Assembly (NCBI GenBank): GCA_035546615.1
Contig: DASZWM010000005.1
Span: 32,001 to 96,000, forward strand
From: Minisyncoccota bacterium
GTDB lineage: Bacteria; Patescibacteriota; Minisyncoccia; Phycocordibacterales; SBAW01
Reading direction: 5' to 3'
DNA: 64,000 nucleotides
Shown here: piece after piece, positions 9,010 through 45,490 of the stretch
Layout: each line of letters starts with the position of its first letter
Position numbering within the stretch: position 1 is the first letter of the stretch
Notes under the pieces: model-generated
What the model saw: the letters and a program-made list of their open reading frames with translations, nothing else
Told to the model about the DNA's origin: nothing
Database searches by the model: none
Made by a program: the position numbers and the translations under genes

Positions 9010-9606
9010 TTATTTCATTGAACCCAGATGTTTAAGCGCGGCGGCCAGGCGTTCGCGCACCGCGGCGGCCTCGGGCGCATCCTTCGCACTTTCTTTTACC
9101 GCTTTGCGGGATTCGGACGCGGAGTACCCGAGCGCCATAAGCGCTTCAATCACTTCGCCGTCGCCTCCGGCACCCACGGCTTCGCCCCGCGCGGCCGCCT
9201 GGTCCGCCAGCTTATCGCGCAGTTCCACCACGATACGCTCCGCGCTCTTTTTGCCGATGCCAAACACTTTGGTGAGTATCGTGCTGTCGCCTTGCGCGAT
9301 GGAGCGCTTAAGCGTTGAGGCTTCGGCGACATTGAGTATGCCGAGCGCCGATTTCGGGCCGATGCCCGAGACGCTCGTGAGCTCCCGGAAGAAGGCGAGG
9401 TCGTCGCCGGTTGCAAAACCGTACAGGTCTATCGCGTCCTCGCGCACCGCCGTATGTATAAATAGAGAGATGTCGCCCGCGCGGCCGCTCATGGAAGATA
9501 TAAGGAGCGCCGGTACGCGCACGCAGTAGCCTACGCCGCCTACCTCCACTATGAGCGTCCCGTCTCCCGCCGTTCCCCCGTATCGTCCGGTCAGTTTGCC
9601 AATCAT
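9010..9606 (-). CDS. ruvA: Holliday junction DNA helicase subunit RuvA.
   Basis: MIGKLTGRY...TLIVEVGGVGYCVRVP (OB domain), HhH pairs (LTSVSGIGPKSAL; VFGIGKKSAERIV) and a C-terminal domain III. Confidence 0.9.
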   Translation of the reverse strand: MIGKLTGRYGGTAGDGTLIVEVGGVGYCVRVPALLISSMSGRAGDISLFIHTAVREDAIDLYGFATGDDLAFFRELTSVSGIGPKSALGILNVAEASTLKRSIAQGDSTILTKVFGIGKKSAERIVVELRDKLADQAAARGEAVGAGGDGEVIEALMALGYSASESRKAVKESAKDAPEAAAVRERLAAALKHLGSMK

Positions 9607-10131: not shown

Positions 10132-11961
10132 ATGCGCTACTATGTATGCATGGTTCTACACCGCTCTTTGTCCGGCCTGACGTTCATCATCAGCATATTT
10201 GTATTTCTCTTCGCGCTTGCGATATTTTTTCCGCCTTCGTTCGCCAGTGCCGGAGGAGGGGGTGGGGGAAGCGGCGGGGGAGGCGCATCCTGCCCGCCGT
10301 TCGCGACGGACCCCCCTGCGGTGGCAGCTGTGCCGGGATATAAGCCTGCAGGCCCCACCCTCTACGAGATGCCGGGAAGCCTGGGATATTTCGACGCCGT
10401 CGTTCCCACCGTTGTAAAGCGGGCCTGGTACAACAAGATGCCGTCGGCCGGCGTATGTGGCGGGCAACAGATGGGCCTATGCATGACCGACAATTTTTCC
10501 GTTATCCAAGGAACGAAGATAGCGGCTCTCACCGCCTCTATGAATATCAAGCTCGGCAAGCCGGCGGCGTCGCAGGTGAGCATAGACGCTGTTACCAAGC
10601 CAATCAGCAATAACTGCGGACAAACTTCGACGCTCTGGTCGTACGTGCTTACCCCTTCGGCGGGGGACTTTACGATGAAGGTCCCCAAAGGCGTTTCGAT
10701 AGACCTGACCTACAGCTGTCAGCCGAACCAGACCTATACCTGGGAGACGCACACCAGCTGCTTTTTGGGCATCGGCAACTGCAACGTCCGGCAGCATGCG
10801 CGCTCGTTCATGTTCGCGGACCGCGCGGTAAGCAACATTCCCTCGGGCTCTTCCGGCCTTTCAGGCACCAAGACCTTCGTGCCCCAGGAAGGCACGTCCT
10901 ATTCGCTCGCCTGCGGCGGCTACCGTCCCGAGAACGGCAGCGCGACTCCTCCCACCTACGGCTCAGCGAGCAGCGCCGGAGGCGTATGCTTCCTCGGCAT
11001 CGACTGCGACAGCGGCGGCGACTTCTCCTCCTACAACGTCAAGGACTCCTCCTACCAGCAGCCCCCGCTGGCCATGTCTGTGGAGGCCTGCACCGGCGAC
11101 GACGAGGTAGTCGTCAATAACGTTTGCACCCCATGCTCGCAGGTGCTCCCGGGGAGCTGGCGCATCGAGAACATATGCGTCACTTCCTTGCCCGTGGTTT
11201 CCATTGACGCGTTCGTGAACGGAAAGTCGGTGAGCACCACGACTCCCGGCATCCCGGTTACCATACGCGCCACGTACGTTTCCACCACGTCCGACCCGAT
11301 AGCCGGCGCCGTCATCAATGGCGGGACCAAGGGCAAGGATACGCCGGCGTGCACCGGCTCGTGCATGCAGACTACCTATAGCCGCACCAAGGCCACCGCT
11401 ACCACTACGTACACATTCACGCCGAGCGCTTCGGGCGTTTTCACCTTCTATCCCTCGGTGCAGACCAAGCTGCTTGCCGCCTGGAGCAATTATGGCGATG
11501 TGTCGAAGACGCTCATCGTGGGCAACGCGTGTCCGGCTAACGCCACGCCCTCGGGCTCGAGCTGCACGTGCAACGACAAGTACTCCGCCTATATCGGCAA
11601 CGCGTGCGTGCTGACGTGCCCCGCGACCATGCATCCAAACATGAGCGGCAGCACCTGCATCGCCAACCTTCCCACGAGCGCGATGCTGGACTTCACCGCC
11701 CTGCGCGTGCGCGAAGGCGCCAGGTCCACCCTGTCATGGACGATACGAGGCATGCAGAGCGGCATCGCCTGCGACATCGCGCCGCGCGAGCTGCTTGAGA
11801 GTCCCATGCCGGCCTACCCCGGAGGCTCCACGTGGAGCGGCGCTCTCGGGACCACCCCCATCAAGGATCCCACGCGCTATACCCTGAGCTGCACCAACGG
11901 GGAGGAGACGGTTAGCAAGACAACGACCGTGCAGCTTATCCCCGAGTACCAGGAAATCTAA
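10132..11961 (+). CDS. Secreted Gly- and Cys-rich surface protein, 609 aa. Paralog of the 1278 aa protein at 13716.
   Basis: N-terminal hydrophobic signal/TM segment followed by GGGGGGSGGGGAS. Shares with ORF 13716 the internal blocks LACGGYRPENG/LQCGGYQPQEG, SYQQPPLAMSVEAC/SYRQPQIQVDVQTC and VCTPCSQV/ACVPCNTV. Also shares a C-terminal domain of about 75 aa ending IPEYQEI. Confidence 0.7.
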   Translation: MRYYVCMVLHRSLSGLTFIISIFVFLFALAIFFPPSFASAGGGGGGSGGGGASCPPFATDPPAVAAVPGYKPAGPTLYEMPGSLGYFDAVVPTVVKRAWYNKMPSAGVCGGQQMGLCMTDNFSVIQGTKIAALTASMNIKLGKPAASQVSIDAVTKPISNNCGQTSTLWSYVLTPSAGDFTMKVPKGVSIDLTYSCQPNQTYTWETHTSCFLGIGNCNVRQHARSFMFADRAVSNIPSGSSGLSGTKTFVPQEGTSYSLACGGYRPENGSATPPTYGSASSAGGVCFLGIDCDSGGDFSSYNVKDSSYQQPPLAMSVEACTGDDEVVVNNVCTPCSQVLPGSWRIENICVTSLPVVSIDAFVNGKSVSTTTPGIPVTIRATYVSTTSDPIAGAVINGGTKGKDTPACTGSCMQTTYSRTKATATTTYTFTPSASGVFTFYPSVQTKLLAAWSNYGDVSKTLIVGNACPANATPSGSSCTCNDKYSAYIGNACVLTCPATMHPNMSGSTCIANLPTSAMLDFTALRVREGARSTLSWTIRGMQSGIACDIAPRELLESPMPAYPGGSTWSGALGTTPIKDPTRYTLSCTNGEETVSKTTTVQLIPEYQEI

Positions 11962-13498
11962 TGTTTTTCTTGCGCGCGTACGCGGCCAGGAAAAGCGCCG
12001 CAATGGCCGCGTAGAGCGGATAGCTTCCCGCGAGCGAGTACAGCGTCGCGCGTCGCGCTTCGGGGATCTCGAGCGTGCCCTGAAGCAGGCCCTGCTGTCT
12101 GAAGCCGAGCGACTTCACCACGGCGCCGCGTGCGTCTATGAGCGCCGACGGCCCTTCTATAGAGGCCCGCACGGCGGGAATATTGTTCTCGGCGGCGCGG
12201 TAGCGGGCGGCCGTGAGGCTGTATGCCTCGCCGGCGTCTTCGGGCAGTATCCACTCGAACCCCATATTAAGGAAGAAGCCGGCGCCCTTGGCGTCGCGGC
12301 GGGCAAGGCCCGCCAGGTGTATTTCCGAGCACTGGAGGCTTGCGGCGACAACGCCGCTTTCAAGCTCGACAACGCCGCTTCCGGTGCCGGCGCTCAGGGG
12401 AGCGGGCGTCGGCCCGAAGCCGAAAGAAGCGTACGCAGGCGCGTATTCTGTAAATGCGAATAAGTTGCGTTTATCGTAAGCGGCGGCCAGCGTCCCCGAA
12501 TGCCAGAAGTGATATGTCTGGAAGTATTCGCCGCCCCGGTACGCGAGGTCCCAGGTAACCACCGTGCTCGAGGCGGGCGCGTTCTCGCGCATCCAGTCAT
12601 CGAGCGCCCGGCGCGGGAAGAACCGCAATTCTCCATAGCCGTCCGCGGGCGGCGCGCCCTCGTAGGCGACCTCGTTCGCCACTGCCGCCGGATAGACGAC
12701 GAGTTCATTCCCTTGCGCTCCGGCTTCGCGCAGCGCCGCGGCGAGCGCCGGGAACGTGAGGCGGTCCTGGTATACGTTGGCGAACGGGAGCGCGTCGCGC
12801 GGTCCCGCCTGCACCACGGCGACGCGCATCTCCCGCGGCGCGGGAGCGCCCCCGAGGTACCGCTCGTGCGCGAAGCACAGGAGCCATGCCGCCAGCGCGA
12901 GATATGCGGCCAGCGCGAGGGCCCGCCTGCGCTGGCCGCGCGGTGCGGCCAGCAGTTCTCCCGCGAGCGCTCCCGCGAGCGCAACCGTGAACGAGACGAG
13001 AGCCTCTCCTCCCAGCGCCGCTCCCGCGAAGGAGGCTGGCAGGAAGCCCGTCGTGTACGCCAGCGCGCCGAGATAATAATGGCCGGTCACCCACTGGAGG
13101 GCGCTTTCAAGCGTGACATACGCTCCCGCGAACAGCGCCGCATTGAGGAGAATCGAATCAAAGCGAAACGCGCGGTAGAGAACGATGCAGCCGCCCCCCA
13201 CGCATCCGAACAGGAGCGCCCACAGGACGGGGCTGCAGTGTATGAGCTCCAGGACGAACGGCGCGTCGGAGGGCCATGCGAAGCCCGTAAAGATAAAAGC
13301 GGAAAGCGATGCGCCGGGCAGGGCGCCGGCAATAAAACCCGCGACGAACAGGTGTTTTGCGGGGATGGGGGCCCTTCGCGCGGCGACAAAGACCACCGGC
13401 GCGAACGCCATAAGGGAGAAAAGGGGAGCGGAAAAAGGCGGCAGGGCCAGTGCAAGCAATACTCCCGAGGCGGCCGCAAAAACAAGGCTCATGACCAT
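11936..13498 (-). CDS. lnt: Apolipoprotein N-acyltransferase (Lnt).
   Basis: Multi-TM N-terminal half followed by a C-terminal carbon-nitrogen hydrolase domain (MRVAVVQAGP ... catalytic region). Start set at MVMSLVFAAASG because the longer ORF reaches into the upstream intergenic repeat. Confidence 0.75.
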   Translation of the reverse strand: MVMSLVFAAASGVLLALALPPFSAPLFSLMAFAPVVFVAARRAPIPAKHLFVAGFIAGALPGASLSAFIFTGFAWPSDAPFVLELIHCSPVLWALLFGCVGGGCIVLYRAFRFDSILLNAALFAGAYVTLESALQWVTGHYYLGALAYTTGFLPASFAGAALGGEALVSFTVALAGALAGELLAAPRGQRRRALALAAYLALAAWLLCFAHERYLGGAPAPREMRVAVVQAGPRDALPFANVYQDRLTFPALAAALREAGAQGNELVVYPAAVANEVAYEGAPPADGYGELRFFPRRALDDWMRENAPASSTVVTWDLAYRGGEYFQTYHFWHSGTLAAAYDKRNLFAFTEYAPAYASFGFGPTPAPLSAGTGSGVVELESGVVAASLQCSEIHLAGLARRDAKGAGFFLNMGFEWILPEDAGEAYSLTAARYRAAENNIPAVRASIEGPSALIDARGAVVKSLGFRQQGLLQGTLEIPEARRATLYSLAGSYPLYAAIAALFLAAYARKKNIRFPGTRG

Positions 13499-13644
13499 GA
13501 CGCAAGTATACTGTCTCCGCGCTGACCCTGCTTGCGGCATCCTTGCTGCCGGCATTCGGGCAGGCGTTCGTCTATTTCTGCAAACAGTCCTCCCGCCTCG
13601 GGGGCCTGGGCCGCATCCAGCGACGGCGAGAGGAGAGCCGAAGG

Positions 13645-13673
13645 CGTTTCCTGCCGAGAGAACGGATTTTGTG
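13645..13673 (+). repeat. Third copy of the tRNA-Arg 3'-end-derived motif.
   Basis: GTTTCCTGCCGAGAGAACGGATTTTGTG. Lies about 45 nt upstream of the GTG start of the 1278 aa ORF. Confidence 0.65.
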
Positions 13674-13715
13674 GACAAAATATTATGTAGCGAATTCTCG
13701 GGGTAGTATAGAAGA

Positions 13716-16700
13716 GTGAGCTTCAAGTGCTTGAAGAAATATTTTTTTCTCCTTCCGCTGCTTGTTTTTATAGGTCCTGCGCCCTTTGTCATGGCCGCCC
13801 CCACGTTTCAAGTGGGGCCGATTTACCTCACTACGACAAGCGCGTCAAACCAAACCTGGCCCGTGCCTTCTGACTGGAACAATGCGAGCAACATCGTGCA
13901 GGTTATTGCGGCTGGAGGAGGCGGGGGCGGAGTCGCCAGCAACACGACGGGGAGCGGCGGGGGCGGCGGGGGCGGCGGATATTCAAAATCGACAAATATT
14001 ACCCTTTCCGGTTCATCGGTAACGTATCGTCTTGCGCCCGGCGGCGCCGGCGGAGGATCGTCGGCTGCGGTTGCCGGAGGCGATGCATGGTTTAACGGCA
14101 CCACATGCGCGGCTGCCTCCGTCTGCGCGAAAGGCGGAGGGGCAGGGGGCGCAGGCACAGGCGGAGGGGGAGGCGCCGCGGGCGCAGGCGGGCCGGCTAC
14201 AGGAGGAGTCGCGTCAGGCACCGGCTCAATAAAAAATAACGGCGGCGCAGGCGGGGCAGGCACAGGTGTTTCCGCCGGCGGCGGAGGGGGCGGCGCGGGC
14301 GGCCCAAACGCCGCCGGCGGGACTGGCAATCGCACCAATGGCGGGCAAGGGGACGGCACTGCAGGCGGCGCCGGCGGGATGACAAGCCTCATCAGGGCCG
14401 CGTCTGCTGGAAGCCCAGGAACTGAATTTTCATCCTCGCCCGCGTACGGGTCCGGCGGCGGCGGCGGAGGTTCTAGATACGCAGCGGACGCGGCAGCGGG
14501 AGGCACGTACGGCGCGGGCGGCGGCGGAGCTTTTGCTGCCTCCTCCGGTACCCTCCGCCGCGGAGGAGCCGGCGCTCCCGGGCTTATTGTGATTAATTAC
14601 AGCGCACCTCTTACCGTTTCCATTACCGCGCCGACCAACAGCGGCAACGCATGTATTGGCACGCCCGGTGCATTTACCATCAGCCGCAACGGGCCGGCAA
14701 CTTGGCCTGCAGTGCCGGTTGATCTTATATACGGCGGAAGCGGGAGCACCGCGGCTGCGGGGATAGACTACTCCGCTGCTGCGACAACGGTCACCATACC
14801 GGCAAATACCATGTCTATAACGCTTCCCATTACCGCGCTTCAAAAAACATCGGGCGGCAGCACTACGCTCAAGGCGACCATAGCCGCATCCTCGGCCTAT
14901 TCCGTCGGTACGCCAGCGAGCGCCACAATAGTTATTAACAATGGGACTCCGGCGATTGAGACAGTCGCCCCCTACACGATCGCTCCTTTTGCTGCTTACC
15001 CATTGCCCTACAATGGCTACATTTATCACCAAAATGGCGGTTCCGGCTACACTAATCCATTTGCCACTCCCGCAAGCATTCTTAATACATGGATCAGCAA
15101 TAGCCCTTCGCCCCAACTATGCGGCGCCAACGGCGGTACGGCCGGTATATCGCTTCCTAGTGACACGGCACAGGGCGTATGCATGGGTCCTAATTTCTCC
15201 GGCACTGTAGCAGGCACCCGGGTTGCGGTCCTGCAGGCGGTAGCGCAGACTGCAGGCATTCCTCCGGTTAATGTCGGCCTCGATCTCACGAATGTCAAAA
15301 AAACAAATCCTTGCAACACTTCAACAACGCACTGGGCGTACGCTACTGCGCCGACACAAAATACGCCCGCCGCGACGCTTAAGGTCCCTAAATACACACC
15401 GGTCCAGTTCTCTTATCAATGTTTGCCGAACCAGAATTATGTTTGGTTTAACGCCGCATGCCAAGGCGCTTACATTATTAGCTGCCTTAGCTGGACGCTT
15501 GTTACCGATGGCGACCTCAATGTCCAGACAGCGGATCGAGCGTGGTACAAGGGCACTGAAACGGCGAACCTTATCGACAGTTCTACGCAGACATTCAGCA
15601 ATTCGCAGAGCGTTACGCTCCAATGCGGCGGCTATCAGCCTCAAGAAGGGATTCCCGCAAACGGCGGTTCTCCGCCAGCTGCATCCTCCGGCACTGCTCC
15701 TACTGGAGGCAGCTACACGGTATACGGTATGCAGAATCCTTCCTATCGGCAGCCGCAAATACAAGTTGACGTACAGACATGCTCGGATCCTACCGCTATC
15801 GTACAGGGCGGTGCGTGCGTTCCGTGCAATACGGTAACTTCGGGCAGTTATCGTTCGGGTAATACCTGCGTCTTGTATCCGCCCCCGACGGCGACTATCC
15901 AAGCCAATAACGCCGGTTTTCAAGCGGCAGACAGCAGCGGCAACAAGAACGGAAAATTAGTTTCAGTTGGGGCGGGACAGCAAGTAACTGTAGCCGCCAC
16001 GTATGCTGGCAGTACCAATCAAACTCAAAAAACCGTCTTTATTACTGCCGCAGGTTCTGGCGTATGGACCGTGCCAAGCGATTGGAACAGCGCCAATAAC
16101 AGCATCGAGGTTATAGGCGGCGGCGGCACGGCGGCTTTTACGGGAGGCCGAGGCGGCGGGGGCGGCGGCGGCGCGTATTCAAAAAAGACTAATATTTCCC
16201 TCACGCCTGGCGCGCCTGTGACATATAGGGTGGGTCAAGGTGCGGCCCAAGGGAGTCCGGCCGCTCCGGGTGACGATACTTTTTTTAACCGGACCGCCGG
16301 TTCCTCAAATACCTGCGCCGATACGGTTTCGGTATGTGCCAAGGGCGGAAACAGCGGCAATGGCAACAATGGTGGAGCTGGAGGCGCTGCGAGTGGCGGC
16401 GTCGGCACTGTTAAATATTCGGGGGGCGCCGGCGCTTACGGCGATAATAACAATTCCGGCAACGGCGGCGGCGCAGGAGGTCCCAACGGGAATGGTCAAG
16501 CGGGAGACAGTGGCGGCGCAGGGGATGCGGGGCTTGGCGGCGCGGGCAGCGGTTGTGGCAACCCACCTGCGGCTGGGGGGAATGGTGCCGAGTGGATTGC
16601 TACCAATGTGTGGAGTGGCACTGCATACACGGGCGCAACGCCGACGGGCGGCTCCGGCGGGGGCGGCGGGTGCCGCTCATCCATTGCCGCTCCGGGCGGT

Positions 16701-17552
16701 AACGGCGGTTTGTATGGCGGCGGAGGCGGCTCCGGCGGAGGCAGCCAGAGCAATGAAGGAGTCGGGGCTCAGGGCATTATCGTAATCAAATATACCTCAA
16801 CCGGCGACCCTCTTGAGGCTACCGCTATCAATTGCGACTCGGGATGCGATTCACAGGACGGTGATACTGTTAACTGTAACCTTGTTGCTCCTCCCAATCC
16901 GCCGGCGGCTCCTGATCCAAACTGTTGGCGGAAACCCGATGCGACAAAGACGTATACCTTTACGCCGGCATCAGCAGACGCGGGAAAGACGTTTGTATTT
17001 TCCGCACAGGCAAAAACTTTTAACTACATCAACTATAACGGCTACGCTACCGTGCAGGTGCGGGTATGCCCGATCGGTCAGGGAACGGACGGCAACGGCG
17101 GATGTATTGCGGACGCATGCACCAACAATATCGTATTCCCAGGCAGCCAGACGACAGTACCCGCAGGATGTACGGGTAATCCGGACAATACGTGCAGCGT
17201 GCCCACCGGCTATGCGTTCAACGGCGCGGCCTGCGTCCCTTCAGCTCCGTCGGTTCCGACCCTTAGCCAAAACTCATTTACCGCCACCCGCGTACGTATG
17301 GGGGCGGCATCGACGCTTTCATGGAACATACCGGGTATGGCGAGCGGCATTACATGCGATATCAGTCCTGCGGATAAATTGCAGAGCCCGATGCCTGCCT
17401 GGACAAGCGGCTCTACTTGGATCGGCTCGGTACAGACGACCAGCATATACGGGCCCACCAAATATACGCTCACGTGCACTAACAGCACGACCGACCCGCC
17501 GGCCACCCGCAGCGTCATCGTCAACATCATCCCTGCGTATCAGGAGATATAG
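13716..17552 (+). CDS. Giant secreted Gly-rich surface protein, 1278 aa, with two internal repeat modules.
   Basis: GTG start; signal peptide MSFKCLKKYFFLLPLLVFIGPAPFVMA. Two about 300 aa modules, each with SDWN..N..V.VI.GGGG ... YSK.TNI.L ... VTYR ... VCAKGG ... G.I.VI.YS and many GGN-encoded Gly runs. The C-terminal domain of about 75 aa is shared with ORF 10132 and ends IPAYQEI. Confidence 0.75.
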   Translation: MSFKCLKKYFFLLPLLVFIGPAPFVMAAPTFQVGPIYLTTTSASNQTWPVPSDWNNASNIVQVIAAGGGGGGVASNTTGSGGGGGGGGYSKSTNITLSGSSVTYRLAPGGAGGGSSAAVAGGDAWFNGTTCAAASVCAKGGGAGGAGTGGGGGAAGAGGPATGGVASGTGSIKNNGGAGGAGTGVSAGGGGGGAGGPNAAGGTGNRTNGGQGDGTAGGAGGMTSLIRAASAGSPGTEFSSSPAYGSGGGGGGSRYAADAAAGGTYGAGGGGAFAASSGTLRRGGAGAPGLIVINYSAPLTVSITAPTNSGNACIGTPGAFTISRNGPATWPAVPVDLIYGGSGSTAAAGIDYSAAATTVTIPANTMSITLPITALQKTSGGSTTLKATIAASSAYSVGTPASATIVINNGTPAIETVAPYTIAPFAAYPLPYNGYIYHQNGGSGYTNPFATPASILNTWISNSPSPQLCGANGGTAGISLPSDTAQGVCMGPNFSGTVAGTRVAVLQAVAQTAGIPPVNVGLDLTNVKKTNPCNTSTTHWAYATAPTQNTPAATLKVPKYTPVQFSYQCLPNQNYVWFNAACQGAYIISCLSWTLVTDGDLNVQTADRAWYKGTETANLIDSSTQTFSNSQSVTLQCGGYQPQEGIPANGGSPPAASSGTAPTGGSYTVYGMQNPSYRQPQIQVDVQTCSDPTAIVQGGACVPCNTVTSGSYRSGNTCVLYPPPTATIQANNAGFQAADSSGNKNGKLVSVGAGQQVTVAATYAGSTNQTQKTVFITAAGSGVWTVPSDWNSANNSIEVIGGGGTAAFTGGRGGGGGGGAYSKKTNISLTPGAPVTYRVGQGAAQGSPAAPGDDTFFNRTAGSSNTCADTVSVCAKGGNSGNGNNGGAGGAASGGVGTVKYSGGAGAYGDNNNSGNGGGAGGPNGNGQAGDSGGAGDAGLGGAGSGCGNPPAAGGNGAEWIATNVWSGTAYTGATPTGGSGGGGGCRSSIAAPGGNGGLYGGGGGSGGGSQSNEGVGAQGIIVIKYTSTGDPLEATAINCDSGCDSQDGDTVNCNLVAPPNPPAAPDPNCWRKPDATKTYTFTPASADAGKTFVFSAQAKTFNYINYNGYATVQVRVCPIGQGTDGNGGCIADACTNNIVFPGSQTTVPAGCTGNPDNTCSVPTGYAFNGAACVPSAPSVPTLSQNSFTATRVRMGAASTLSWNIPGMASGITCDISPADKLQSPMPAWTSGSTWIGSVQTTSIYGPTKYTLTCTNSTTDPPATRSVIVNIIPAYQEI

Positions 17553-17739: not shown

Positions 17740-18210
17740 CTAGAGGCCGAAGATCTCGGCTACGTGCTCGCCCACGTGCGGGCCCTGCTCCTCTTCCTGC
17801 ACCCGGGTTTTGAGATGCTCGCGCACGTCGGCGCCCTGCTGGGCGCTGTCGAGTATCAAAGAGAAGTGGGGAGCAAGAACTCCGCGCATTGTCATGAAAA
17901 GCCGGGGATTTTCCTGGTCATGCTCGACCCAGAACGTGTGTATGGCTGAATAGGGGTAGCGCGTGCCGTCTACCGACAGGCCGCGGTCGTCCATATGGAC
18001 CGAGTGCTCGCGGGGGCCGCGCGCGGCGAGAAAGCCTATCGACAGCGCGCCTATTGCGATAATAACGGCGAAAAGAAAGTTGCCGAAGAATACCGCAGCT
18101 ACTCCGCCCGCGAGCGCGATAACGCCCAAGCCCCAGTACCAGTCGGTGCTGCGCTCGCGGTGCTCGTGCGTCGTAACGCTCCATTCCATGCGCTCCGTAG
18201 TGCCTGGCAT
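17740..18210 (-). CDS. Hypothetical membrane protein.
   Basis: 156 aa with two adjacent TM helices (WYWGLGVIALAGGVAAVFFGNFLFAVIIAIGALSIGFLAA). No motif recognised. Confidence 0.4.
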   Translation of the reverse strand: MPGTTERMEWSVTTHEHRERSTDWYWGLGVIALAGGVAAVFFGNFLFAVIIAIGALSIGFLAARGPREHSVHMDDRGLSVDGTRYPYSAIHTFWVEHDQENPRLFMTMRGVLAPHFSLILDSAQQGADVREHLKTRVQEEEQGPHVGEHVAEIFGL

Positions 18211-18254
18211 ATCGTCTTCAGTATACCATCACGCAACTGGTATACTTTTAAGAT

Positions 18255-19067
18255 ATGAAGACAATCAAACTAAACGAGGATGCGAATATCCCCGTGCTCG
18301 GCCTGGGCACGTGGCAGCTGACGGGGGATGCGTGCACGGAAGCCGTCCGCTACGCGCTTGAGCTCGGCTACACGCATATCGATACCGCCGATGTGTATGG
18401 TAATCATGCGGAAGTGGCGAGCGGCGCTAAAGCCTCCGGCGTCGCACGGGAGAAGTTCTTCCTTACCACCAAGGTGTGGCGCACCGACTTGGCGCACGAC
18501 CCGCTTGTGGAGAGCGCGGACCGCTTTCTTGAAGAGCTCGCTACCGACTATATCGACCTCCTCCTTATTCACTGGCCTAACAGCGAGATTCCTGTCGAGG
18601 CCAGTCTTAGGGCGATGGAGGAGCTTAAGCGCGCCGGAAAGGTGCGCGCGATAGGCGTTTCTAACTTTACTGTTCATCACCTTAAGGACGCACTTGAAGC
18701 CGGGGTTGAAATAACCAACAACCAAGTAGAGATACGTCCCGCCTTCGCGCAAAAAGAACTGCGTGATTTCTGTGCTTCCAAGGATATTTCCGTAACCGCG
18801 TACTCGAGCCTGCGCGGCGGTGCTAATGAATTGCCGCTTATCGTGGAATTGGCAGGGAAGTACGGCAAGACTGCTTCGCAGATAATCCTCAACTGGGTTG
18901 TGGCTCGCGGCATGATAGCGATACCTAAGAGCTCGCACCCGGAGCGCATTAAAGAGAATTTCGAGTCAGTAGATTTCGAAATGGAAGAAGCGGACCTCGC
19001 GCGCATAGATGCGCTGCCGGAAGGGAAGCGGGTTAATACGCCGGCCTTCGGGGAATTCGATTATTGA
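18255..19067 (+). CDS. Aldo/keto reductase (2,5-diketo-D-gluconate reductase-like).
   Basis: GLGTWQ ... HIDTADVYGNH ... LLLIHWP ... AIGVSNF ... IPKSSHPERIKENF are AKR superfamily signatures. Confidence 0.85.
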   Translation: MKTIKLNEDANIPVLGLGTWQLTGDACTEAVRYALELGYTHIDTADVYGNHAEVASGAKASGVAREKFFLTTKVWRTDLAHDPLVESADRFLEELATDYIDLLLIHWPNSEIPVEASLRAMEELKRAGKVRAIGVSNFTVHHLKDALEAGVEITNNQVEIRPAFAQKELRDFCASKDISVTAYSSLRGGANELPLIVELAGKYGKTASQIILNWVVARGMIAIPKSSHPERIKENFESVDFEMEEADLARIDALPEGKRVNTPAFGEFDY

Positions 19068-19533
19068 GAAAAGTTTTTGCCGATGGCATTCCACGGCAGT
19101 TTCATGCCTGATTCCGGAAACTTGTCGAGAATCCATTGTACGTAAGTATTACTGTTGGGACCACGCAAGCCGTATTTCTCTTTAAAAGGATATTGATCTA
19201 CAGAAGAAGTAATACAGTCAGCCATTCGCTCCGCAGTGGAACCATCTGCACCTTCGACAGTATCTACTATTGCAGAATTCCAGTGGAAGTAATGAACAAA
19301 AGCGAATGTCTGTATCCCGTCGGTAGGGGAAAGTAAGTCTGCGTCGAGATGGCCCCAGCTTTTGTCGCGAATCTGTCGTCCGAATCCTATTTCCCAGCGT
19401 GATATAGCGCCTTTTTATTCACGACGAACCAAGGATGGATAGCAAAGTTAAAAGGGATACAGGCAGGACATGCAAAAAGAAATACCTGATATAAGTCTTT
19501 CTTTAAGAGTTTCTGGAACTCGGCTTCGGTCAT
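19061..19533 (-). pseudogene. Frameshifted ORF in the AT-rich islet.
   Basis: On the reverse strand, ATG at 19533 gives MTEAEFQKLLKKDLYQVFLFACPACIPFNFAIHPWFVVNKKALYHAGK then a stop. A neighbouring frame continues RWEIGFGRQIRDKSWGHLDADLLSPTDGIQTFAFVHYFHWNS...YGLRGPNSNTYVQWILDKF...SQ to 19061 with no start codon. This implies a frameshift near 19385. Confidence 0.35.
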
Positions 19534-19545
19534 ATTTCCAAACTT

Positions 19546-19633
19546 TGGCGGAGGGGGTGAGATTCGAACTCACGGTACCTTGCGGTACTCTTGTTTTCAA
19601 GACAAGTGCACTCGGCCTCTATGCGACCCCTCC
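19546..19633 (-). tRNA. tRNA-Ser (anticodon TGA), type II with long variable arm; CCA encoded.
   Basis: Reverse complement: acceptor GGAGGGG/CCCCTCC, anticodon stem CTTGT/ACAAG with loop CTTGAAA, long variable arm AGTACCGCAAGGTAC, T-arm GTGAG-TTCGAAT-CTCAC, then GCCA. Confidence 0.8.
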
Positions 19634-20113
19634 CTGGCGATTTTGTATCTTACCACTGTACCAGTTATTTTCTAGGTAATGTTCCTCTGAGTGACAATTT
19701 GGACAAAGTAGTTCCAGGTTATCCAGCGTATTGTGTTGCCGGTTTCTGTCTTTGTGATGTACGTTTAATATCTCATACCTTGCATATCCGCATCGTTCGC
19801 AAATGGGGCCTCGCAGTTTCAACAGACGAAGTTTCAAGCCTCGCTGGTATACAACTTTGTCCTTAGGCGCTCGACCTTTGTATTTTATTCCTGCACGGTT
19901 GGTATTGGCGCAGCCTCTGCTACATGTATTTTTGTTTGCACTAGAGAGAATAGGTTTACCGCAGACAACACAAGGGTGTTCTTTTCGAGTAGCTAGTCCA
20001 TAACAGGTTTGACTGCAAAATACTCGACCTTGTTTAATTTGACCCGGTCGTCTATAGATTGGTTTGCCACAAACTGTGCATGCAGTATTGGGATTTCTTT
20101 TATACTCATCCAC
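19619..20113 (-). CDS. HNH endonuclease with N-terminal Cys-pair zinc-finger-like repeats.
   Basis: C-terminal HNH motif NVHHKDRNRQHNTLDNLELLCPNCH. Four CxxC pairs occur upstream (CTVCG, CSQTC, CVVCG, CERCG). The region 19070..20160 is clearly more AT-rich than the flanks. The 3' end overlaps the 5' end of tRNA-Ser by about 15 nt. Confidence 0.7.
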   Translation of the reverse strand: MDEYKRNPNTACTVCGKPIYRRPGQIKQGRVFCSQTCYGLATRKEHPCVVCGKPILSSANKNTCSRGCANTNRAGIKYKGRAPKDKVVYQRGLKLRLLKLRGPICERCGYARYEILNVHHKDRNRQHNTLDNLELLCPNCHSEEHYLENNWYSGKIQNRQGGVA

Positions 20114-20172
20114 TAATCCAGTATACCAATTCTTAGTATGGCAGGCAATACACTTTTTCCTGTCCGTAGGCT

Positions 20173-20847
20173 ATGCTCGAAGGGAACATGGATATCCAGA
20201 TTGAGCGGCTGAAGAAAAATATAGACAAATTACAGAAGACGCATGGCCACCCGGACTATACAGCCTTGTACGGGACTGGCTGTATCGATCATCCGGACCT
20301 TTTTCTTATTCTTATGAATCCGACCGCACGCAATATATCCGTGCACAAGGATTGGAAGGGTCTTAAGGCTTCCTGGCTCGGGACAAAGAACTTTTGGAAG
20401 ATACTCTATAAACTCGAACTGATCTCGGCCAAAACTTTTGCAGCTACCCAGGAACGCGCCCCGGCCGAATGGGACAATGATTTCTGCGTCGCGGTGTATA
20501 CGGAGCTGGCGCGCAACAAGGTTTTTATCACCAACTTAGGCCGTTCAACCCAGCCTGACGCTCGACCACTCCCTGACGCGGTATATAAAGCGTGCGTTGC
20601 GCTCACCCAGGAAGAGATAAACGCAGTGAAGCCTAAAGTGGTCGTTCTCTTCGGGAATCAAGTAAGCTCAGCTTTGCTTGAAACACCGATCAAGGTTTCT
20701 GAAACCCGCAAGAAACGTTTTGATCTTGAGATAGGCGGTACGGTGTATCCCGTATATGCCACCTATTACCCGGTCGGCATGGGATTTATGAATGCCGATA
20801 AGACGATCGAAGATGTTCGCTGGATTCGCAAGGCGCATTCACGATAG
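20173..20847 (+). CDS. Uracil-DNA glycosylase superfamily protein; family uncertain.
   Basis: LFLILMNPTARN resembles the UDG/MUG motif-A region (GxNPG-like). A Tyr/Pro-rich motif-B-like stretch (TYYPVGMGF) lies near the C-terminus. 224 aa. Confidence 0.4.
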   Translation: MLEGNMDIQIERLKKNIDKLQKTHGHPDYTALYGTGCIDHPDLFLILMNPTARNISVHKDWKGLKASWLGTKNFWKILYKLELISAKTFAATQERAPAEWDNDFCVAVYTELARNKVFITNLGRSTQPDARPLPDAVYKACVALTQEEINAVKPKVVVLFGNQVSSALLETPIKVSETRKKRFDLEIGGTVYPVYATYYPVGMGFMNADKTIEDVRWIRKAHSR

Positions 20848-20858
20848 ACTTACTTAGC

Positions 20859-21281
20859 ATGAAATATCTCGGCATAGATTACGGGACCAAGCGCATCGGC
20901 GTAGCTGTCTCTGATGATGGGGGCGTGGTAGCATTTCCCCTCACGACCCTGAAGAGCGATAGGGACGCGGCAGGGGAGGTTGCCGCGCTTGCCAAGAGCC
21001 GCGAGGTCGGAACAATCGTCATCGGCGAGTCTCGCAATTTTCAGAACGAGCCCAACCCTGTGATGGAGGATATTGAGCAGTTCAAAAAAGACATTGCCAA
21101 CCTGACAGGTCTGCCTGTGGAATACGAACGGGAGTTTTTTACCAGCACGCAGGCGGCGCGGCAGTTTGCGCCCGACGGCTCGCGCAAAGACAATCCTTCG
21201 CAGGAAAAGCTGGATGCATCGGCTGCAGCCTTGATTTTACAGGGGTATTTAGACAGAATAGGTGCTAAGAAGCCCATATAG
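20859..21281 (+). CDS. ruvX: Holliday junction resolvase-like / pre-16S rRNA nuclease RuvX (YqgF).
   Basis: MKYLGIDYGTKRIGVAVSDDGGVVAFPLTTL is the canonical YqgF N-terminus with catalytic Asp. 140 aa. Confidence 0.85.
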   Translation: MKYLGIDYGTKRIGVAVSDDGGVVAFPLTTLKSDRDAAGEVAALAKSREVGTIVIGESRNFQNEPNPVMEDIEQFKKDIANLTGLPVEYEREFFTSTQAARQFAPDGSRKDNPSQEKLDASAAALILQGYLDRIGAKKPI

Positions 21282-21345
21282 TCGTCGCTCGCTCGGAAAT
21301 TAAAGTAAAACTTTATTTCTCTCACTCGCTAGACTATTAAAAACA

Positions 21346-21675
21346 ATGGAACCAATTAGCATAGACGATTTCAAAAAGATAGAGATCCGCATCGGAGAGA
21401 TAAAGAGCGCGGAGAAGATAGAAGGGAGCGACAAGCTCCTGAAGCTTAAGGTTATGTTCGGCGAAGAAGAGCGTCAGGTGCTTTCCGGCATCTCGGCGTA
21501 TTTTCCCAACCCGGAGGACTTGGTGGGGAAGAAGTGCCCGTTCGTTACCAACCTGGCGCCGCGCACCATGATGGGGCTTGAGAGCCAGGCGATGATATTG
21601 GCAACCGGCGGCGACGGCGAAACGCCGTTCGCTCTGTTCGAAACCTCGGGCGCTTCCGGCGCGCGCGTCCGCTAA
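21346..21675 (+). CDS. Standalone tRNA-binding domain protein (CsaA/Trbp111/EMAP-like OB fold).
   Basis: FKKIEIRIGEIKSAEKIEGSDKLLKLKVMFGEEERQVLSGISAYF matches the tRNA-binding domain found at the C-termini of MetRS and PheT. Confidence 0.7.
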   Translation: MEPISIDDFKKIEIRIGEIKSAEKIEGSDKLLKLKVMFGEEERQVLSGISAYFPNPEDLVGKKCPFVTNLAPRTMMGLESQAMILATGGDGETPFALFETSGASGARVR

Positions 21676-21678
21676 TTC

Positions 21679-22269
21679 ATGCTTGAGCGACTGCATGAGT
21701 GGAAGGATTCTGCATGGCAGAAATTCATAGTGCTGGCGCAAGGCCCGCATGCGCTCTTCTGGCTCGGCGTATGCGCGCTGACCGATCCGATATTCTTTCC
21801 CATACCGCCGGAGGCATACCTTGCCGCGCTGATCTTGGCTCACCCCAAACGTTTTAATCTATATTTGGGTATTGCCGCCGTCTTTTCGGTACTGGGTGCG
21901 GCACTCGGCTATTTTGTAGGAGCATTTGTATTCCACCAGTTCGGGATGCCGCTCCTCCATTTCTATCACCTGGAGCCCGCATTCCTGCAGGCGCAGGAGC
22001 TTATAAAGGGCGGCGTGTTCGTCGGCATGATATTGGTGGCCTTCCAGCTGATTCCGGAGAAGGTATTCGTGCTCGCGGCGGGCTTCTTGGGAGCGCCGTT
22101 CTTTCCGTTTTTAGCGGGATTCCTGGTGGGCCGCGTGGCGCGTCTTGCCCTTATCGCATATCTCACGAAACGGTTCGGCGCGGACGTAGTGCTGCTTATA
22201 AAGCGGTACTTCCTCGCCGCGACTGTTTTGTTCTTGCTCGCAATAGCGTATTATTTCCTAGTGAAGTGA
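21679..22269 (+). CDS. DedA/VTT-domain-family membrane protein (tentative).
   Basis: 196 aa, four to five TM helices. The RFGADVVLLIKRYF region resembles DedA family motifs. Confidence 0.35.
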   Translation: MLERLHEWKDSAWQKFIVLAQGPHALFWLGVCALTDPIFFPIPPEAYLAALILAHPKRFNLYLGIAAVFSVLGAALGYFVGAFVFHQFGMPLLHFYHLEPAFLQAQELIKGGVFVGMILVAFQLIPEKVFVLAAGFLGAPFFPFLAGFLVGRVARLALIAYLTKRFGADVVLLIKRYFLAATVLFLLAIAYYFLVK

Positions 22270-22305
22270 GTGAAGGAAAGCTCGCTTTATTTCCGAACGA
22301 AAGGA
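22261..22305 (+). repeat. About 45 nt intergenic motif, copy 1. Copy 2 is at 35485..35528 with about 85% identity.
   Basis: GTGAAGTGAGTGAAGGAAAGCTCGCTTTATTTCCGAACGAAAGGA compared with GTGAAGTGAGTGAAATAAAGTTTACTTTAATTCCGAACGAAGGA. Copy 1 is followed by the palindrome CATATGAA-N8-TTCATATG and then tRNA-Arg(TCT). Confidence 0.6.
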
Positions 22306-22374
22306 CGGAAATATGAATGTACTCGTTCATATGCTATTGTGCATTTCCGCCTGCTGCTTTTGTAGGGGGACAAT

Positions 22375-22446
22375 GCCTTCGTAGCTCAACGGATAGAGCC
22401 GCGCTCTTCTAAGGCGTTGATGTAGGTTCGATTCCTACCGAAGGCA
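22375..22446 (+). tRNA. tRNA-Arg (anticodon TCT).
   Basis: Acceptor GCCTTCG/CGAAGGC, D-arm GCTC-AACGGATA-GAGC, anticodon loop CTTCTAA, T-arm GTAGG-TTCGATT-CCTAC. Confidence 0.8.
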
Positions 22447-22563
22447 CAAATAGTGCGGGGCACTATTTGTGAGCCGCAGGCGCGACGGCGCCGAGGCGGG
22501 GTCGCGGAAATTTTCAGCAGAAAATTATCTGTGACCAAATAGCGGAGAATAAGATAACAGCAC

Positions 22564-22636
22564 GGGCGATTAGCTCAGTTGGTAGAGCAACTCTTTTACA
22601 CAGAGAAGGTCACAGGTTCGAGTCCTGTATCGCCCA
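22564..22636 (+). tRNA. tRNA-Val (anticodon TAC).
   Basis: Acceptor GGGCGAT/ATCGCCC, D-arm GCTC-AGTTGGTA-GAGC, anticodon loop TTTACAC, T-arm ACAGG-TTCGAGT-CCTGT. Confidence 0.8.
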
Positions 22637-22640
22637 CACT

Positions 22641-23312
22641 ATGGAAGGTCCTGCCAAACCCAGTAACAACACTAAGGAAAGCTCTCCTAAGCCTTCTGTT
22701 GAAGTTGAATCAGAGTTTGCCGAATTCGTGCCACAGGACTTCCTTAATGACCCTGTAGGATATTTTGAACGTGGAGGAAAGAATATAAAAACAGGAGAAG
22801 TTAAATATGATGAGGCTGGTGCGCTTCGTGAGGATCCAACTGCTGTAAAAGATTTACCAGTCTGGACGAATAGCAATGGAATAGAAATTCTTACGGTAGG
22901 AAGAAGGGTAAATACGATTAAGGGCGCTGTAGGAGAATCAGGAGATCCTTTCTACGAGTACAAAATCCTTGAGAAGCTTATGGAAATCGGGTTACCCGCT
23001 GCGAGGCCTATTGCGAAAGCAGAACAGGGCGGTACTCATATCATTGTCATGGAGCGTATTCCGGGGGTTAGGTGGTCTGAAAGAGAAAGTCTGAATCTCA
23101 AAGAAAAAGGATACTCTGACGAAGACATTGCAACTCTAATAAGTGAAGCAGAACAGAAAATGGATGGCCTGAAAACTCGCTTTGACGAAGCGGGAGTTAT
23201 TCGCAGTTGGAAACTGAAGGATATGGTATTTGAGATAGACATTGAGAATAAGAAAGTTATTTCTATAGTCCCCACAGATTGGGAAAGGACGAAGATTATT
23301 GAAAAGCAATAG
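22641..23312 (+). CDS. Small atypical kinase-like protein (RIO/Kdo-kinase-like fold; tentative), lower-GC gene.
   Basis: THIIVMERIPGVRW resembles the IVMEYIxG hinge motif of RIO/Kdo kinases. The downstream GVIRSWKLKDMVFEIDIENKKVISIVPTDWER resembles the catalytic-loop/DFG region. The gene starts 5 nt after tRNA-Val and its GC content is clearly below neighbouring genes. Confidence 0.4.
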   Translation: MEGPAKPSNNTKESSPKPSVEVESEFAEFVPQDFLNDPVGYFERGGKNIKTGEVKYDEAGALREDPTAVKDLPVWTNSNGIEILTVGRRVNTIKGAVGESGDPFYEYKILEKLMEIGLPAARPIAKAEQGGTHIIVMERIPGVRWSERESLNLKEKGYSDEDIATLISEAEQKMDGLKTRFDEAGVIRSWKLKDMVFEIDIENKKVISIVPTDWERTKIIEKQ

Positions 23313-23381
23313 AGGTTCTAATATCGTGTACTTCTGACCACAGAAGACGTCTTTATTCAAGTCTTGTGCTATAACACTTCC

Positions 23382-24098
23382 ATGGAGCCGACAGTTATAT
23401 ATGAAGACGATTCCGTTATCGTCGTTAACAAGCCATCGGGCCTGCCTGTGCATGCGGACGGACGGCATGACCGCGCCACGCTTGTGGACTGGCTCGCCGT
23501 GCACTATCCGGAACTCAAAGGAGTGGGGGAGGAGCAGCGGCTCGCCGACGGCACGATAATAGACCGGCCCGGCATCGTGCACCGCATCGACCGCGAGACG
23601 TCCGGCGTGCTTGTCGTGGCGCGCACGCAGGCGTCTTTTGAGCATTTAAAGGAGCAGTTCCAGAACAGGGAAGTGAGAAAGGTGTACCGCGCCTTCGTGT
23701 ACGGCGCCCTTAAAGACGAGCGCGGCACGATAGACAGGCCGATAGGCTCCTCGCGCGGAGGCCACGGTCCGCGTTCGGCGACGCGCCCGCACGGTGTCAT
23801 GCGCGAAGCGCAGACGCTCTACCGCGTCATACATAACGGCAAGGACGCCGCATATGTGGAGGCGTTTCCGAAAACCGGCCGCACGCACCAGATCCGCGTG
23901 CATTTCTCCGCCATTCAGCATCCGATAGTAAATGACACTTTGTATGCGCCCAGCCGCAAGCCGATACTGGGCTTCACCCGGCTCGCGCTCCACGCGTATT
24001 CCATCTCCTTTATCCATCCCGACGGGCGGGAGGTCCTTTTTGAGGCTCCGCTGCCGGCCGATTTTGCCGAAGCCGAGCGGCAATTGCGGGCTAATTAA
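23382..24098 (+). CDS. RluA-family pseudouridine synthase.
   Basis: VIVVNKPSGLPVH ... HRIDRETSGVLVVART (catalytic Asp motif) ... GRTHQIRVH are RluA family signatures. Confidence 0.85.
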   Translation: MEPTVIYEDDSVIVVNKPSGLPVHADGRHDRATLVDWLAVHYPELKGVGEEQRLADGTIIDRPGIVHRIDRETSGVLVVARTQASFEHLKEQFQNREVRKVYRAFVYGALKDERGTIDRPIGSSRGGHGPRSATRPHGVMREAQTLYRVIHNGKDAAYVEAFPKTGRTHQIRVHFSAIQHPIVNDTLYAPSRKPILGFTRLALHAYSISFIHPDGREVLFEAPLPADFAEAERQLRAN

Positions 24099-45000: not shown

Positions 45001-45490
45001 AGCCGGCGGCGAAGAAGACAGTGTGCACCTGAGCGAGTGGCCGGAAGCCGGAGCCGTGGACGAGAAATTGCTTGCCGACATGGAGGTCGTGCGCAAGACC
45101 GCGTCGATGGCGCTGGAGGCGCGCGAGCGCGCCGGCATCAAGATACGCCAGCCGCTCGGGAAGCTCTCCGCAAAGTCCCTGCCCGCCGACTTGGGGCTTC
45201 GCCAGCTTATCGCCGAAGAAGTGAATGTGAAGGAGATCATTGAAGATGTCGTGATGGAAGATGACATATCGCTCGACACCACGATGACGCCGGAGTTGCG
45301 CGATGAGGGCATTATGCGCACGCTCATGCGCCGCGTGCAGGAATGGCGCAAGGACGAGCAGCTCACCATTGCCGACAGGCCGGACTACACGCTCGTCGTT
45401 ACCGCCGAAGAAAATCCCGTGGCGCAGAAGTACCGCGAAGAGATACGGAAAGCGACCGGCCTCAATAGCCTCGAAATAACGGTAGAATAG
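42059..45490 (+). CDS. ileS: Isoleucyl-tRNA synthetase (type 2, eukaryote-like), 1143 aa, with an inserted histidine-phosphatase (PGAM-like) domain.
   Basis: HIGH-equivalent PFATGLPHHGS, editing-domain region, WTISRNRFWASPLP, KMSKS as KLSKSKGN, C-terminal anticodon-binding region. Between WTISRNRFW and IDCWVESG sits FVMRHGEARHN ... LTDAGREYVRAAAQEF ... IDLIVMSPFVRTRETAAIV ... LHEIGFGEFEGRPL ... ILIVTHKGPG, which is collinear with phosphoglycerate-mutase/histidine-phosphatase motifs. Confidence 0.9.
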   Translation: MDMSEVGKSEVAKREEKVLAFWKEQQIFERSVGKRAPRGEFTFYDGPPFATGLPHHGSLLSSIIKDVVPRYKTMRGYRVPRRWGWDCHGLPIENLVEKKLGLKTKKDILSIGIDTFNEEARSTVLQYVHDWEQYVDRVGRWVDFRNSYKTMDNSYIETVWWALKEMQDKKLLYEGRKVLMYCPHCETPLAKAEIAADNTYKDITEEAVTIKFKLKYPQKFGLPENTYLLAWTTTPWTLPGNVGLAVGPDIPYVLVEQNGEYLVLARDLKGQASGTVAGELLGRQMVGADYEPLYRINAVEAHKGRKHQVLAADFVTTTEGTGIVHTAVMYGEDDFALGQKEGLPMVQLLSQNGTYNDNAPEFVRGEYIKKAEKLIKEDLEEKGLLFSRANHTHSYPHCWRCGTALIYNAVASWFINIQKVKAKMLSENQKINWVPAYLRDGRFRNILENAPDWTISRNRFWASPLPIWKEKGGKNLMVVGSVEELLKKTKRSGNKYFVMRHGEARHNVEDAMDGAGRPDNHLTDAGREYVRAAAQEFKKRQEIDLIVMSPFVRTRETAAIVQEVFGLPDSAVAVDNRLHEIGFGEFEGRPLREWAEFFGSLENRFLKTPEGGEPFSDVRRRVGDFLFEIERRYVGKNILIVTHKGPGWLLNAVAKRYSAAQIANEEEYSPFMRNDKAQRIYELPFTPFPHNKDYEMDLHRPYIDAITLVDAQGRGYERIPEVIDCWVESGAMPYASNHYPFKNKNRFNPARFFGLWPKGFPAQFIAEYIGQTRTWFYYMLAVSTVLSGRASFQNVVSTGNLLAADGAKLSKSKGNYTDPLNIMNQFGADAYRFYLMGSVVMNSEDLQFRDEDVREANNRVLGILWNCYKFFELYKDERDPAIRAQDSSHPLDRWVLSLLNKTTAAVTAAMEAYDTPGACKALRAFVDDYSTWYVRRSRDRVKGEDEADKQFALATQYEVLLTLSQLFAPITPYISESIYRSAGGEEDSVHLSEWPEAGAVDEKLLADMEVVRKTASMALEARERAGIKIRQPLGKLSAKSLPADLGLRQLIAEEVNVKEIIEDVVMEDDISLDTTMTPELRDEGIMRTLMRRVQEWRKDEQLTIADRPDYTLVVTAEENPVAQKYREEIRKATGLNSLEITVE

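Follow-up and report, generated by a model that had tools for sequence, protein, structure and literature searches.

In monoderm bacteria, C-terminal modules such as WxL, SLH, CWB2 and dockerin-cohesin are carried by diverse secreted proteins and dock non-covalently to a scaffold, the wall or the S-layer, and the genes concerned are often clustered. The described system closest in form to the one considered here is the C-terminal domain (CTD) of type IX secretion (T9SS), an immunoglobulin (Ig)-like sandwich of ~70-100 residues that ends diverse Sec-exported cargo, with many such proteins per lineage; the residues at its very end are critical for function (RgpB; PMC4804311), and it dimerizes via a swapped C-terminal strand. 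The LPXTG/sortase, PEP-CTERM/exosortase, GlyGly-CTERM/rhombosortase and MYXO-CTERM signals are tripartite, a motif being followed by a transmembrane helix and then by a basic tail (bioRxiv 10.1101/2023.06.07.544157, PMC3237569). The element examined here is the C-terminal module shared by two genes, A and B, on the forward strand of a 64,000-nucleotide stretch of contig DASZWM010000005.1 (positions 32,001 to 96,000; this whole stretch is referred to as the window) from a Minisyncoccota bacterium, a member of the Patescibacteria or candidate phyla radiation (CPR). The module is a predicted Ig-like sandwich, hereafter the CTD, followed by a short tail with which the protein stops.

The AlphaFold model of this CTD is a sandwich of 6-7 strands across residues 7-88 with a predicted local distance difference test score (pLDDT) of 91, and its fold matches are generic Ig-like domains, in agreement with the form of the T9SS domain. 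However, neither a match to Por_Secre_tail-type sequence models nor structural proximity to solved T9SS domains was found, and the module, lacking a profile match and occurring in the wrong phylum, is not regarded as a T9SS CTD. Hosts of that system are Bacteroidota with an outer membrane, and PorU cleaves its CTD. The likeness to the tripartite signals lies in a short invariant C-terminal motif that recurs on numerous unrelated secreted proteins of a single lineage; in those signals a helix and a basic tail follow the motif, whereas here the protein stops at the motif and a folded domain of 85 residues precedes it. The logic of the WxL, SLH, CWB2 and dockerin modules is similar, but no sequence relation to them was seen (no Pfam match), and the present module is an Ig-like sandwich with a free tail. 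SoxY, in which an Ig-like sandwich bears a C-terminal arm that is mobile and functional, is also among the nearest known systems.

The C-terminal domain, its tail and its cargo

The last 97-99 residues of A and B are 56% identical. The CTD of A (11668..11934, +) contains two invariant cysteines and is followed by the tail L-I-P-E-Y-Q-E-I and the stop codon (11935..11961, +); that of B (17253..17525, +), for which residues 1131-1229 of the public protein model P0009 match positions 1-97 of the profile described below, is followed by I-I-P-A-Y-Q-E-I and the stop codon (17526..17552, +). Among the open reading frames (ORFs) of the window, only A and B have such an ending (IPEYQEI and IPAYQEI, respectively). 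Two further probable envelope proteins, one with DUF11 and one with PG_binding_1, are encoded at 46112-48088 and 61566-63617, and because their C-termini are unrelated the tail is not general to the secreted proteins of this genome.

All eight orthologs of A (48-59% identical) end in [IV]P[EAQ][YF]QEI, and the B-like neighbors at loci L001, L003 and L022 end in VPQVQEI, VPVYQEI and IPVYQEI. A profile of the last 97 residues, searched against 1.84 billion cluster-representative proteins, returned 606 representatives at E<=1e-3, of which 82 reached E<=1e-10; their lengths range from 84 to 3098 residues. The matches are of two classes: in one, the alignment reaches position 97 and stops exactly at the last residue of the protein; in the other, several internal copies match positions ~45-90, and these are generic tandem Ig-like repeats in proteins with unrelated C-termini that lack the tail. 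Of the 157 proteins collected, 82 end in P-x-[FYWVILM]-x-E-[ILVFMY], and close variants such as ...FIER, ...FKEK and ...YQNI occur in roughly a dozen others. The 8-residue motif was found 81 times as the last eight residues of a protein and three times internally in 143,028 residues. The tail consensus is V-T-V-x-[LI]-[VIL]-P-x-[F/Y/V]-[Q/K]-E-I-COOH, with Pro(-5) and Glu(-1) in 82/82 proteins and Ile(0) in 73/82. Across 39 diverse members, at a mean column identity of 33%, the only invariant columns are the two cysteines (C35 and C75), Pro(-5) and Glu(-1).

The ending is under strong C-terminus-specific constraint that reaches far past the two paralogs, and the similarity first noticed between A and B extends to the eight A orthologs and to at least 82 proteins of unrelated architecture. 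The earlier note had excluded LPXTG, PEP-CTERM and GlyGly-CTERM for this ending, and rightly so: because nothing follows the motif, both proteins stopping right after ...YQEI, the tail falls outside the tripartite sorting-signal families, and a signal of the LPXTG/sortase type was rejected on the same grounds, together with the 81 terminal occurrences out of 84. An isopeptide or ester cross-link through the tail glutamine was likewise rejected as a general mechanism, as position -2 varies (Q in 55, K in 12, and E, I, N or R in the rest).

The predicted fold is consistent with a tail that stands apart from the domain. In the CTD model the final strand stops at residue 90 and pLDDT drops to ~63 over the seven residues of the tail, the last three of which fall below 50 in the model of full-length A; this drop suggests that the tail is a flexible extension with a free carboxylate and not a core strand. 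The two invariant cysteines probably form an inter-sheet disulfide of the Ig type. The fold prediction proposed in the earlier note thus yielded an Ig-like beta-sandwich with a disordered tail, and the shared domain that the note described was recovered, albeit not at its length of ~75 residues: the folded part spans ~90 residues, to which a tail of 7-8 residues is added.

The taxonomic range of the module was examined by scanning 185,579 species-representative genomes (596 gigabases) for a degenerate DNA pattern that corresponds to T-V-x-Phi-Phi-P-x-[FY]-Q-E-I-stop. Sixteen matches were obtained, against ~3 expected by chance, and 15 of these were in Patescibacteria (Paceibacterota, Kaiserbacteria, Parcubacteria and two metagenome-assembled genomes (MAGs) labelled Saccharibacteria). 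A CTD was found by hmmsearch directly upstream of the pattern in all 15, while the sole alphaproteobacterial match had none; in all verified genome matches, therefore, the CTD with its tail is specific to CPR/Patescibacteria. In Joint Genome Institute (JGI) metagenomes, 47 of 52 pattern matches carried a terminal CTD, and the viral contigs of IMG/VR gave no pattern match.

The cargo that precedes the CTD includes Gly_rich_2, Laminin_G_3, SPRY, F5/8 type C (discoidin), DUF7483, Kelch, EPTP, PA14, Calx-beta and NPCBM_assoc domains as well as a metalloprotease of the gametolysin type (Peptidase_M11); by their domain assignments, these are extracellular binding and lytic modules. A hydrophobic N-terminal segment is present in 57 of 71 full-length members. 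Stand-alone proteins consisting of a signal peptide and a CTD were sought among the short matches, which proved to be fragments, and a word-indexed homolog search with CTD alignments returned only 3-4 short fragments. A second shared element, ...(R/H)-E-L-x-x-L-A-x-F-x-G-G-x-A-A-L-x-L-V...L-S-G-S-L-P-F..., was observed at the N-terminus of many other CTD proteins (P0031, P0036, P0042, P0047, P0052, P0058, P0066, P0073, and those encoded at L042 1068-2627 (-) and L080 1883-7933). This signal-anchor element is absent from A and B and may be a specialized signal peptide.

The module has no curated entry in the libraries searched. Pfam-A (2025) gave no match to the C-terminal region of either protein, A or B, and only five of the 39 diverse CTDs weakly matched the generic Ig-like family DUF5979. 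NCBIfam returned no family for A and B at E<=1 and, in release 20, none for the 39 diverse CTDs at E<=0.01; a profile search of PDB sequences produced no CTD match. No description was found in the full-text literature on the motif, on CPR sorting signals or on CPR surface proteins.

Architecture of genes A and B

Gene A (10132..11961, +) is an ORF of 609 residues whose product is predicted to be secreted, all-beta and Cys-rich. The NCBI model of the gene begins at Met7 and gives 603 residues, and the product is 100% identical to a hypothetical protein in a Candidatus Paceibacterota MAG. A Sec signal peptide was predicted by reading the sequence at residues 1-40 (10132..10251, +; ...FASA↓GGGGGG); the AXA↓G site is kept in the orthologs P0002-P0005, and the N-terminal segment is a helix in the AlphaFold model. 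A lipoprotein was considered and rejected, as a lipobox is absent across the orthologs, in which the first cysteine lies at least 13 residues past the AXA site and in non-lipobox contexts. The mature A orthologs (10252-10290 in the window; P0002-P0005) open with oligo-Gly/Ser stretches such as GGGGGGSGGGG and GGGGGGGSS, after which comes a conserved Cys-[PAT]-P-F-[AS]-T. A Gly/Ser linker directly 3' of the signal peptide was also seen in the CTD proteins P0081 and P0134 and in a 229-residue protein at locus L077.

The full-length model of A is all-beta with a mean pLDDT of 72.6, and is arranged as a sandwich (~115-265), Cys-rich hairpins, a second sandwich (~349-460), more hairpins and the CTD. 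Foldseek matches to A were strings of Ig-like domains only (such as titin, KIT, invasin and the PrgB adhesin), and no enzyme fold was among them. The first block that A shares with B (residues 77-388; 10360..11295, +) is modelled as a beta-sandwich with Cys-rich hairpins; it has no Pfam match, and its fold matches are solely Ig-array-like.

Gene B (13716..17552, +) is an ORF of 1278 residues with a GTG start. Its predicted signal peptide, also read from the sequence, covers residues 1-27 (13716..13796, +; ...FVMA↓APT), and its orthologs have equivalent cleavage sites (AYA↓A and VQA↓T). The public model P0009 (1229 residues) begins instead at an internal GTG, codon 50 (window 13716-13865), and so loses the signal peptide together with the initial residues of a Gly_rich_2 domain. 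Since the orthologs keep both this signal peptide and the beginning of that domain, the GTG at 13716 is supported as the better-fitting start.

Several elements follow the signal peptide of B. The first Gly_rich_2 domain (PF21722) lies at residues 42-295 (13839..14600, +) and scores 32.1 bits alone against a gathering score of 24.3. It is followed by a weak Calx-beta-like beta-sandwich (residues 301-409; 14616..14942, +; E 0.097), which at 13.1 bits is below the PF03160 threshold of 27, although related CTD proteins carry confident Calx-beta domains. The shared block comes next (residues 436-769; 15021..16022, +), and then the second Gly_rich_2 domain (residues 778-1026; 16047..16793, +; E 7e-5), which alone scores 23.3 bits, just below the gathering score; on the whole protein, PF21722 matches in these two stretches with E 5e-9 and 36.9 bits, above that score. 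The CTD is the last. Gly_rich_2 recurs in many other CTD proteins, has no solved structure by sequence and has only weak matches to phage families of unknown function, and no mention of it was found in the literature.

The two proteins align by BLASTP in two collinear blocks, A77-388 with B436-769 (28% identity, E 6e-29) and A420-609 with B1073-1278 (38% identity, E 2e-30). B has the scaffold of A with insertions at two junctions, namely the two Gly_rich_2 domains and the weak Calx-beta-like domain, and the B-like proteins at orthologous positions (1579-1838 residues) contain LamG insertions too; from these varied insertions, the scaffold appears to take up modules freely. Long DNA repeats between A and B are absent, and recent gene conversion was rejected on this basis. 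A and B are old paralogs. Promoter and terminator scans at the locus gave signals at background level.

Much of what the earlier note had proposed for this locus was recovered: the two ORFs on the forward strand with the coordinates and lengths given above, their paralogy, the lnt gene on the opposite strand between them (Lnt-family by Pfam) and, as plausible predictions from AXA-type sites kept in orthologs, a signal peptide in each. The two internal Gly-rich modules of B are likewise real, and correspond to the two copies of a known Pfam domain that the note had missed. Its description of both proteins as giant was overstated, however, and glycine makes up only 10% of A and 19% of B.

The note had also named the GGN tracts as candidate sites for length variation. 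The poly-Gly runs lie in the Gly_rich_2 domain and are encoded by mixed GGA, GGC, GGG and GGT codons, the longest perfect repeats being (CGG)5 and (GGC)4. No close relative of B in which tract lengths could be compared turned up in a search of metagenomes, and contigs with identical A proteins were used instead. Three independent assemblies with the same A protein have B-like genes that are 100% identical over 2460 nucleotides, seven poly-Gly runs included; in a second population, differences are few and consist of clustered point substitutions, all outside the Gly tracts. With short mixed-codon repeats and, in this small sample, no length polymorphism, variation in tract length was not borne out, and a contingency locus or slippage-prone repeat was rejected. 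Several metagenome assemblies (L002, L020, L021, L023, L025-L027) end inside the B-like gene. In the P0005 population, three assemblies break at the same base, within a 'C-x-G-x-D-E-V-V' block common to A, and this shared break looks repeat-induced rather than a sign of hypervariability.

The lnt gene and the genomic neighborhood

The lnt-family gene (11936..13498, -) converges on A and diverges from B. It encodes ~520 residues if translation starts at Met103 of a 622-residue ORF, a start that is suggested by orthologs of 511-524 residues. The product matches Pfam LNT_N and CN_hydrolase above threshold and scores 78.6 bits against the TIGR00546 equivalog, for which the cutoff is 132.9; on these scores it is a divergent member of the Lnt family. 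The last eight codons of A, which encode the tail, overlap the last codons of lnt by 26 nucleotides (11936-11961). The convergent overlap recurs in orthologs at L003 (11799-11824) and L020 (11313-11338), and also at L077 (about 9325-9356). L077 belongs to a distant lineage, in which lnt is just 32% identical and the CTD gene encodes the 229-residue protein mentioned above (signal peptide, poly-Gly/Ser linker and CTD); at L042, lnt lies within 2 kb of a CTD gene.

Genomes in which A is only ~53-59% identical keep the same succession of rpsT, A, lnt and B-like gene, lnt again being on the opposite strand, but this says little alone because the whole 20-kb region is syntenic there. No lnt gene was found beside the A and B genes in two other lineages: in that of P0005, the B-like gene directly follows A, and in that of P0013, two large Gly_rich_2/Calx-beta CTD genes and an A-like gene stand in a row beside rpsL-rpsG-fusA. 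A functional link between Lnt and the CTD is therefore possible but unproven. In four lineages an A gene and a B-like gene lie side by side, whether lnt is present or not; three CTD genes are consecutive at L080, and Kaiserbacteria-type loci contain arrays of 3-4 CTD genes. As adjacency survives both rearrangement and the absence of lnt, and arrays are found elsewhere, the clustering of CTD genes is a robust genomic feature.

The other genes around A and B are housekeeping genes (tsaE, polA, methyltransferases, a Mur ligase, ruvA, rpsT, an aldo-keto reductase and others). The co-occurrence of the ending with a dedicated protease or sortase-like gene, as suggested in the earlier note, was not observed, no such gene being co-localized with A/B or with CTD loci in a clustering of the neighbors of 40 CTD loci (~400 kb). 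In the Kaiserbacteria-type loci L006, L046, L057 and L076, the CTD arrays have variant tails (...VFREK, ...IFEEQ, ...KFQEI) and are interleaved with genes for a 499-residue protein that has an N-terminal transmembrane segment and a CarboxypepD_reg domain and ends in TIQTPFYT[IV]K. This protein was rejected as a general partner because it is confined to that one type of cluster. Just 3' of B, a small membrane protein of 156 residues with no Pfam match is encoded at 17740-18210 (-); its position is conserved in L001, L011 and L022, and its equivalent by position and putative homolog in L003, a protein of 134 residues, is annotated as DUF6804.

Three further features of the window lie away from this locus. 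A class I aminoacyl-tRNA synthetase of the IleRS-like type (42059-45490, +; 1143 residues) has a His_Phos_1 domain inserted at residues 497-659, in the middle of its catalytic domain. A 704-residue fusion (33364-35478, -) joins a dCTP-deaminase-like domain to a ThyX (Thy1) thymidylate synthase domain. The stretch 18001-24000 has a G+C content of ~0.51, against ~0.60 in its flanks. A UDG-family gene and an HNH endonuclease ORF (19619-20113, -) lie within it, and the segment may be mobile or have been acquired horizontally.

A proposed docking or retention role and its alternatives

The reading favored here, to which we give about an even chance, is that the CTD and its tail form a CPR-specific C-terminal docking or retention module on the cell surface. 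A and B would be Sec-exported, disulfide-rich, all-beta surface proteins built as adhesin-like strings of Ig-like sandwiches, to which B would add its two Gly_rich_2 modules and one Calx-beta-like module. The C-terminal module would comprise the ~85-residue sandwich with its cysteine pair and the flexible tail Phi-Phi-P-x-[F/Y/V]-x-E-I-COOH. Once the protein has been exported by Sec, its folded CTD would offer this free peptide to a conserved envelope partner that recognizes the invariant proline, the glutamate and the terminal carboxylate. Candidates for this partner include a component of the S-layer or cell wall, a receptor in the membrane and a neighboring protein's CTD, and docking would hold very different cargo on the cell surface.

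Several points weigh against this reading. The neighbors of the 40 CTD loci revealed no partner, receptor or processing enzyme, and their clustering revealed no universal companion gene. Export, surface location and retention by the tail are predictions from sequences and models, and a tail modelled with low confidence in a monomer is no proof of binding. Taxonomy is in hand for only a minority of the 606 profile matches. In addition, several CTD proteins have an apparent N-terminal signal-anchor; for these, retention by the CTD would be redundant, because the anchor could already hold them on the membrane.

Instead of a docking peptide, the tail could be part of a cleaved sorting signal, with a dedicated enzyme (Lnt being a speculative candidate) recognizing and removing both CTD and tail and the cargo becoming covalently attached to wall or lipid, as in the pairing of the T9SS CTD with PorU or in sortase systems. 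This explanation, which we consider unlikely, draws on the T9SS CTD, which has the same form and on which the last residues are essential (PMC4804311), on the tail being the most conserved part of the module, on the oligo-Gly with which mature A orthologs start, and on the lnt genes that overlap a CTD gene here and at L077 and lie close to one at L042. However, that linkage may be mere inherited synteny and is lost in the P0005 and P0013 lineages, the module matches neither the T9SS CTD nor any other sorting-signal model, and no hydrophobic segment follows the motif that could keep it at a membrane enzyme. CPR cells, moreover, have no outer membrane, and Sec export is enough for them. The tail might alternatively insert into another CTD, by donor-strand or strand-swap pairing, so that the proteins of a cluster form surface hetero-oligomers or fibres. 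The persistence of A/B-like adjacency through rearrangements, the tandem arrays of CTD genes, the strand-swapped T9SS dimer and the unstructured tail of the monomer models would all fit such an assembly; it is nevertheless distinctly improbable, as the modelled CTD is a seemingly complete sandwich that includes its G strand (residues 81-90) and leaves no obvious open groove, and the tail is short, with just five residues after the proline.

An explanation of comparably low probability dispenses with targeting altogether: as a structural domain, a cap or a stalk, the CTD would have been inherited in a lineage-specific expansion of surface proteins, and the tail would be kept for folding, stability or protection from exoproteases. 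Ig-like domains are common as terminal modules, the fold matches are generic, and no partner was found at the loci searched. Such a cap would still have to account for an invariant proline and glutamate, and an isoleucine in 73 of 82 proteins, at the exact C-terminus of domains that are 33% identical and sit on unrelated cargo. Folding explains this conservation poorly because the tail lies outside the predicted fold, and the internal homologous repeats manage without a tail.

The docking reading can be extended. The Ig-like CTD with its free tail may constitute an unrecognized sorting or anchoring system of Patescibacteria, with a dedicated receptor or enzyme, possibly the Lnt-family protein that converges on CTD genes, and may organize much of the surface proteome with which these ultra-small epibionts contact their hosts; we hold this extension only tentatively and think it somewhat unlikely. 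The proposal in the earlier note that the ending is an undescribed sorting or anchoring signal stands as regards its strong terminal conservation, its diverse cargo, its restriction to CPR and its uncurated status, and falls short as regards a partner or enzyme, neither of which was found.

CPR bacteria, which make up a large part of bacterial diversity, live in attachment to other cells, and very little is known about the biology of their envelopes. The CTD module is ready for submission as a new Pfam or NCBIfam entry, and it gives a family context to the uncharacterized Gly_rich_2 domain. If it is indeed a single tag, carried alike by lectin-like, adhesin-like, glycine-rich and protease cargo, it would provide a simple sequence rule with which to list the surface or secreted effectors of any genome of the Paceibacteria type, would point to a docking or sorting partner, and would offer a handle for displaying or localizing proteins in the few tractable CPR co-cultures. 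If dedicated machinery exists, the module would amount to a new sorting system.

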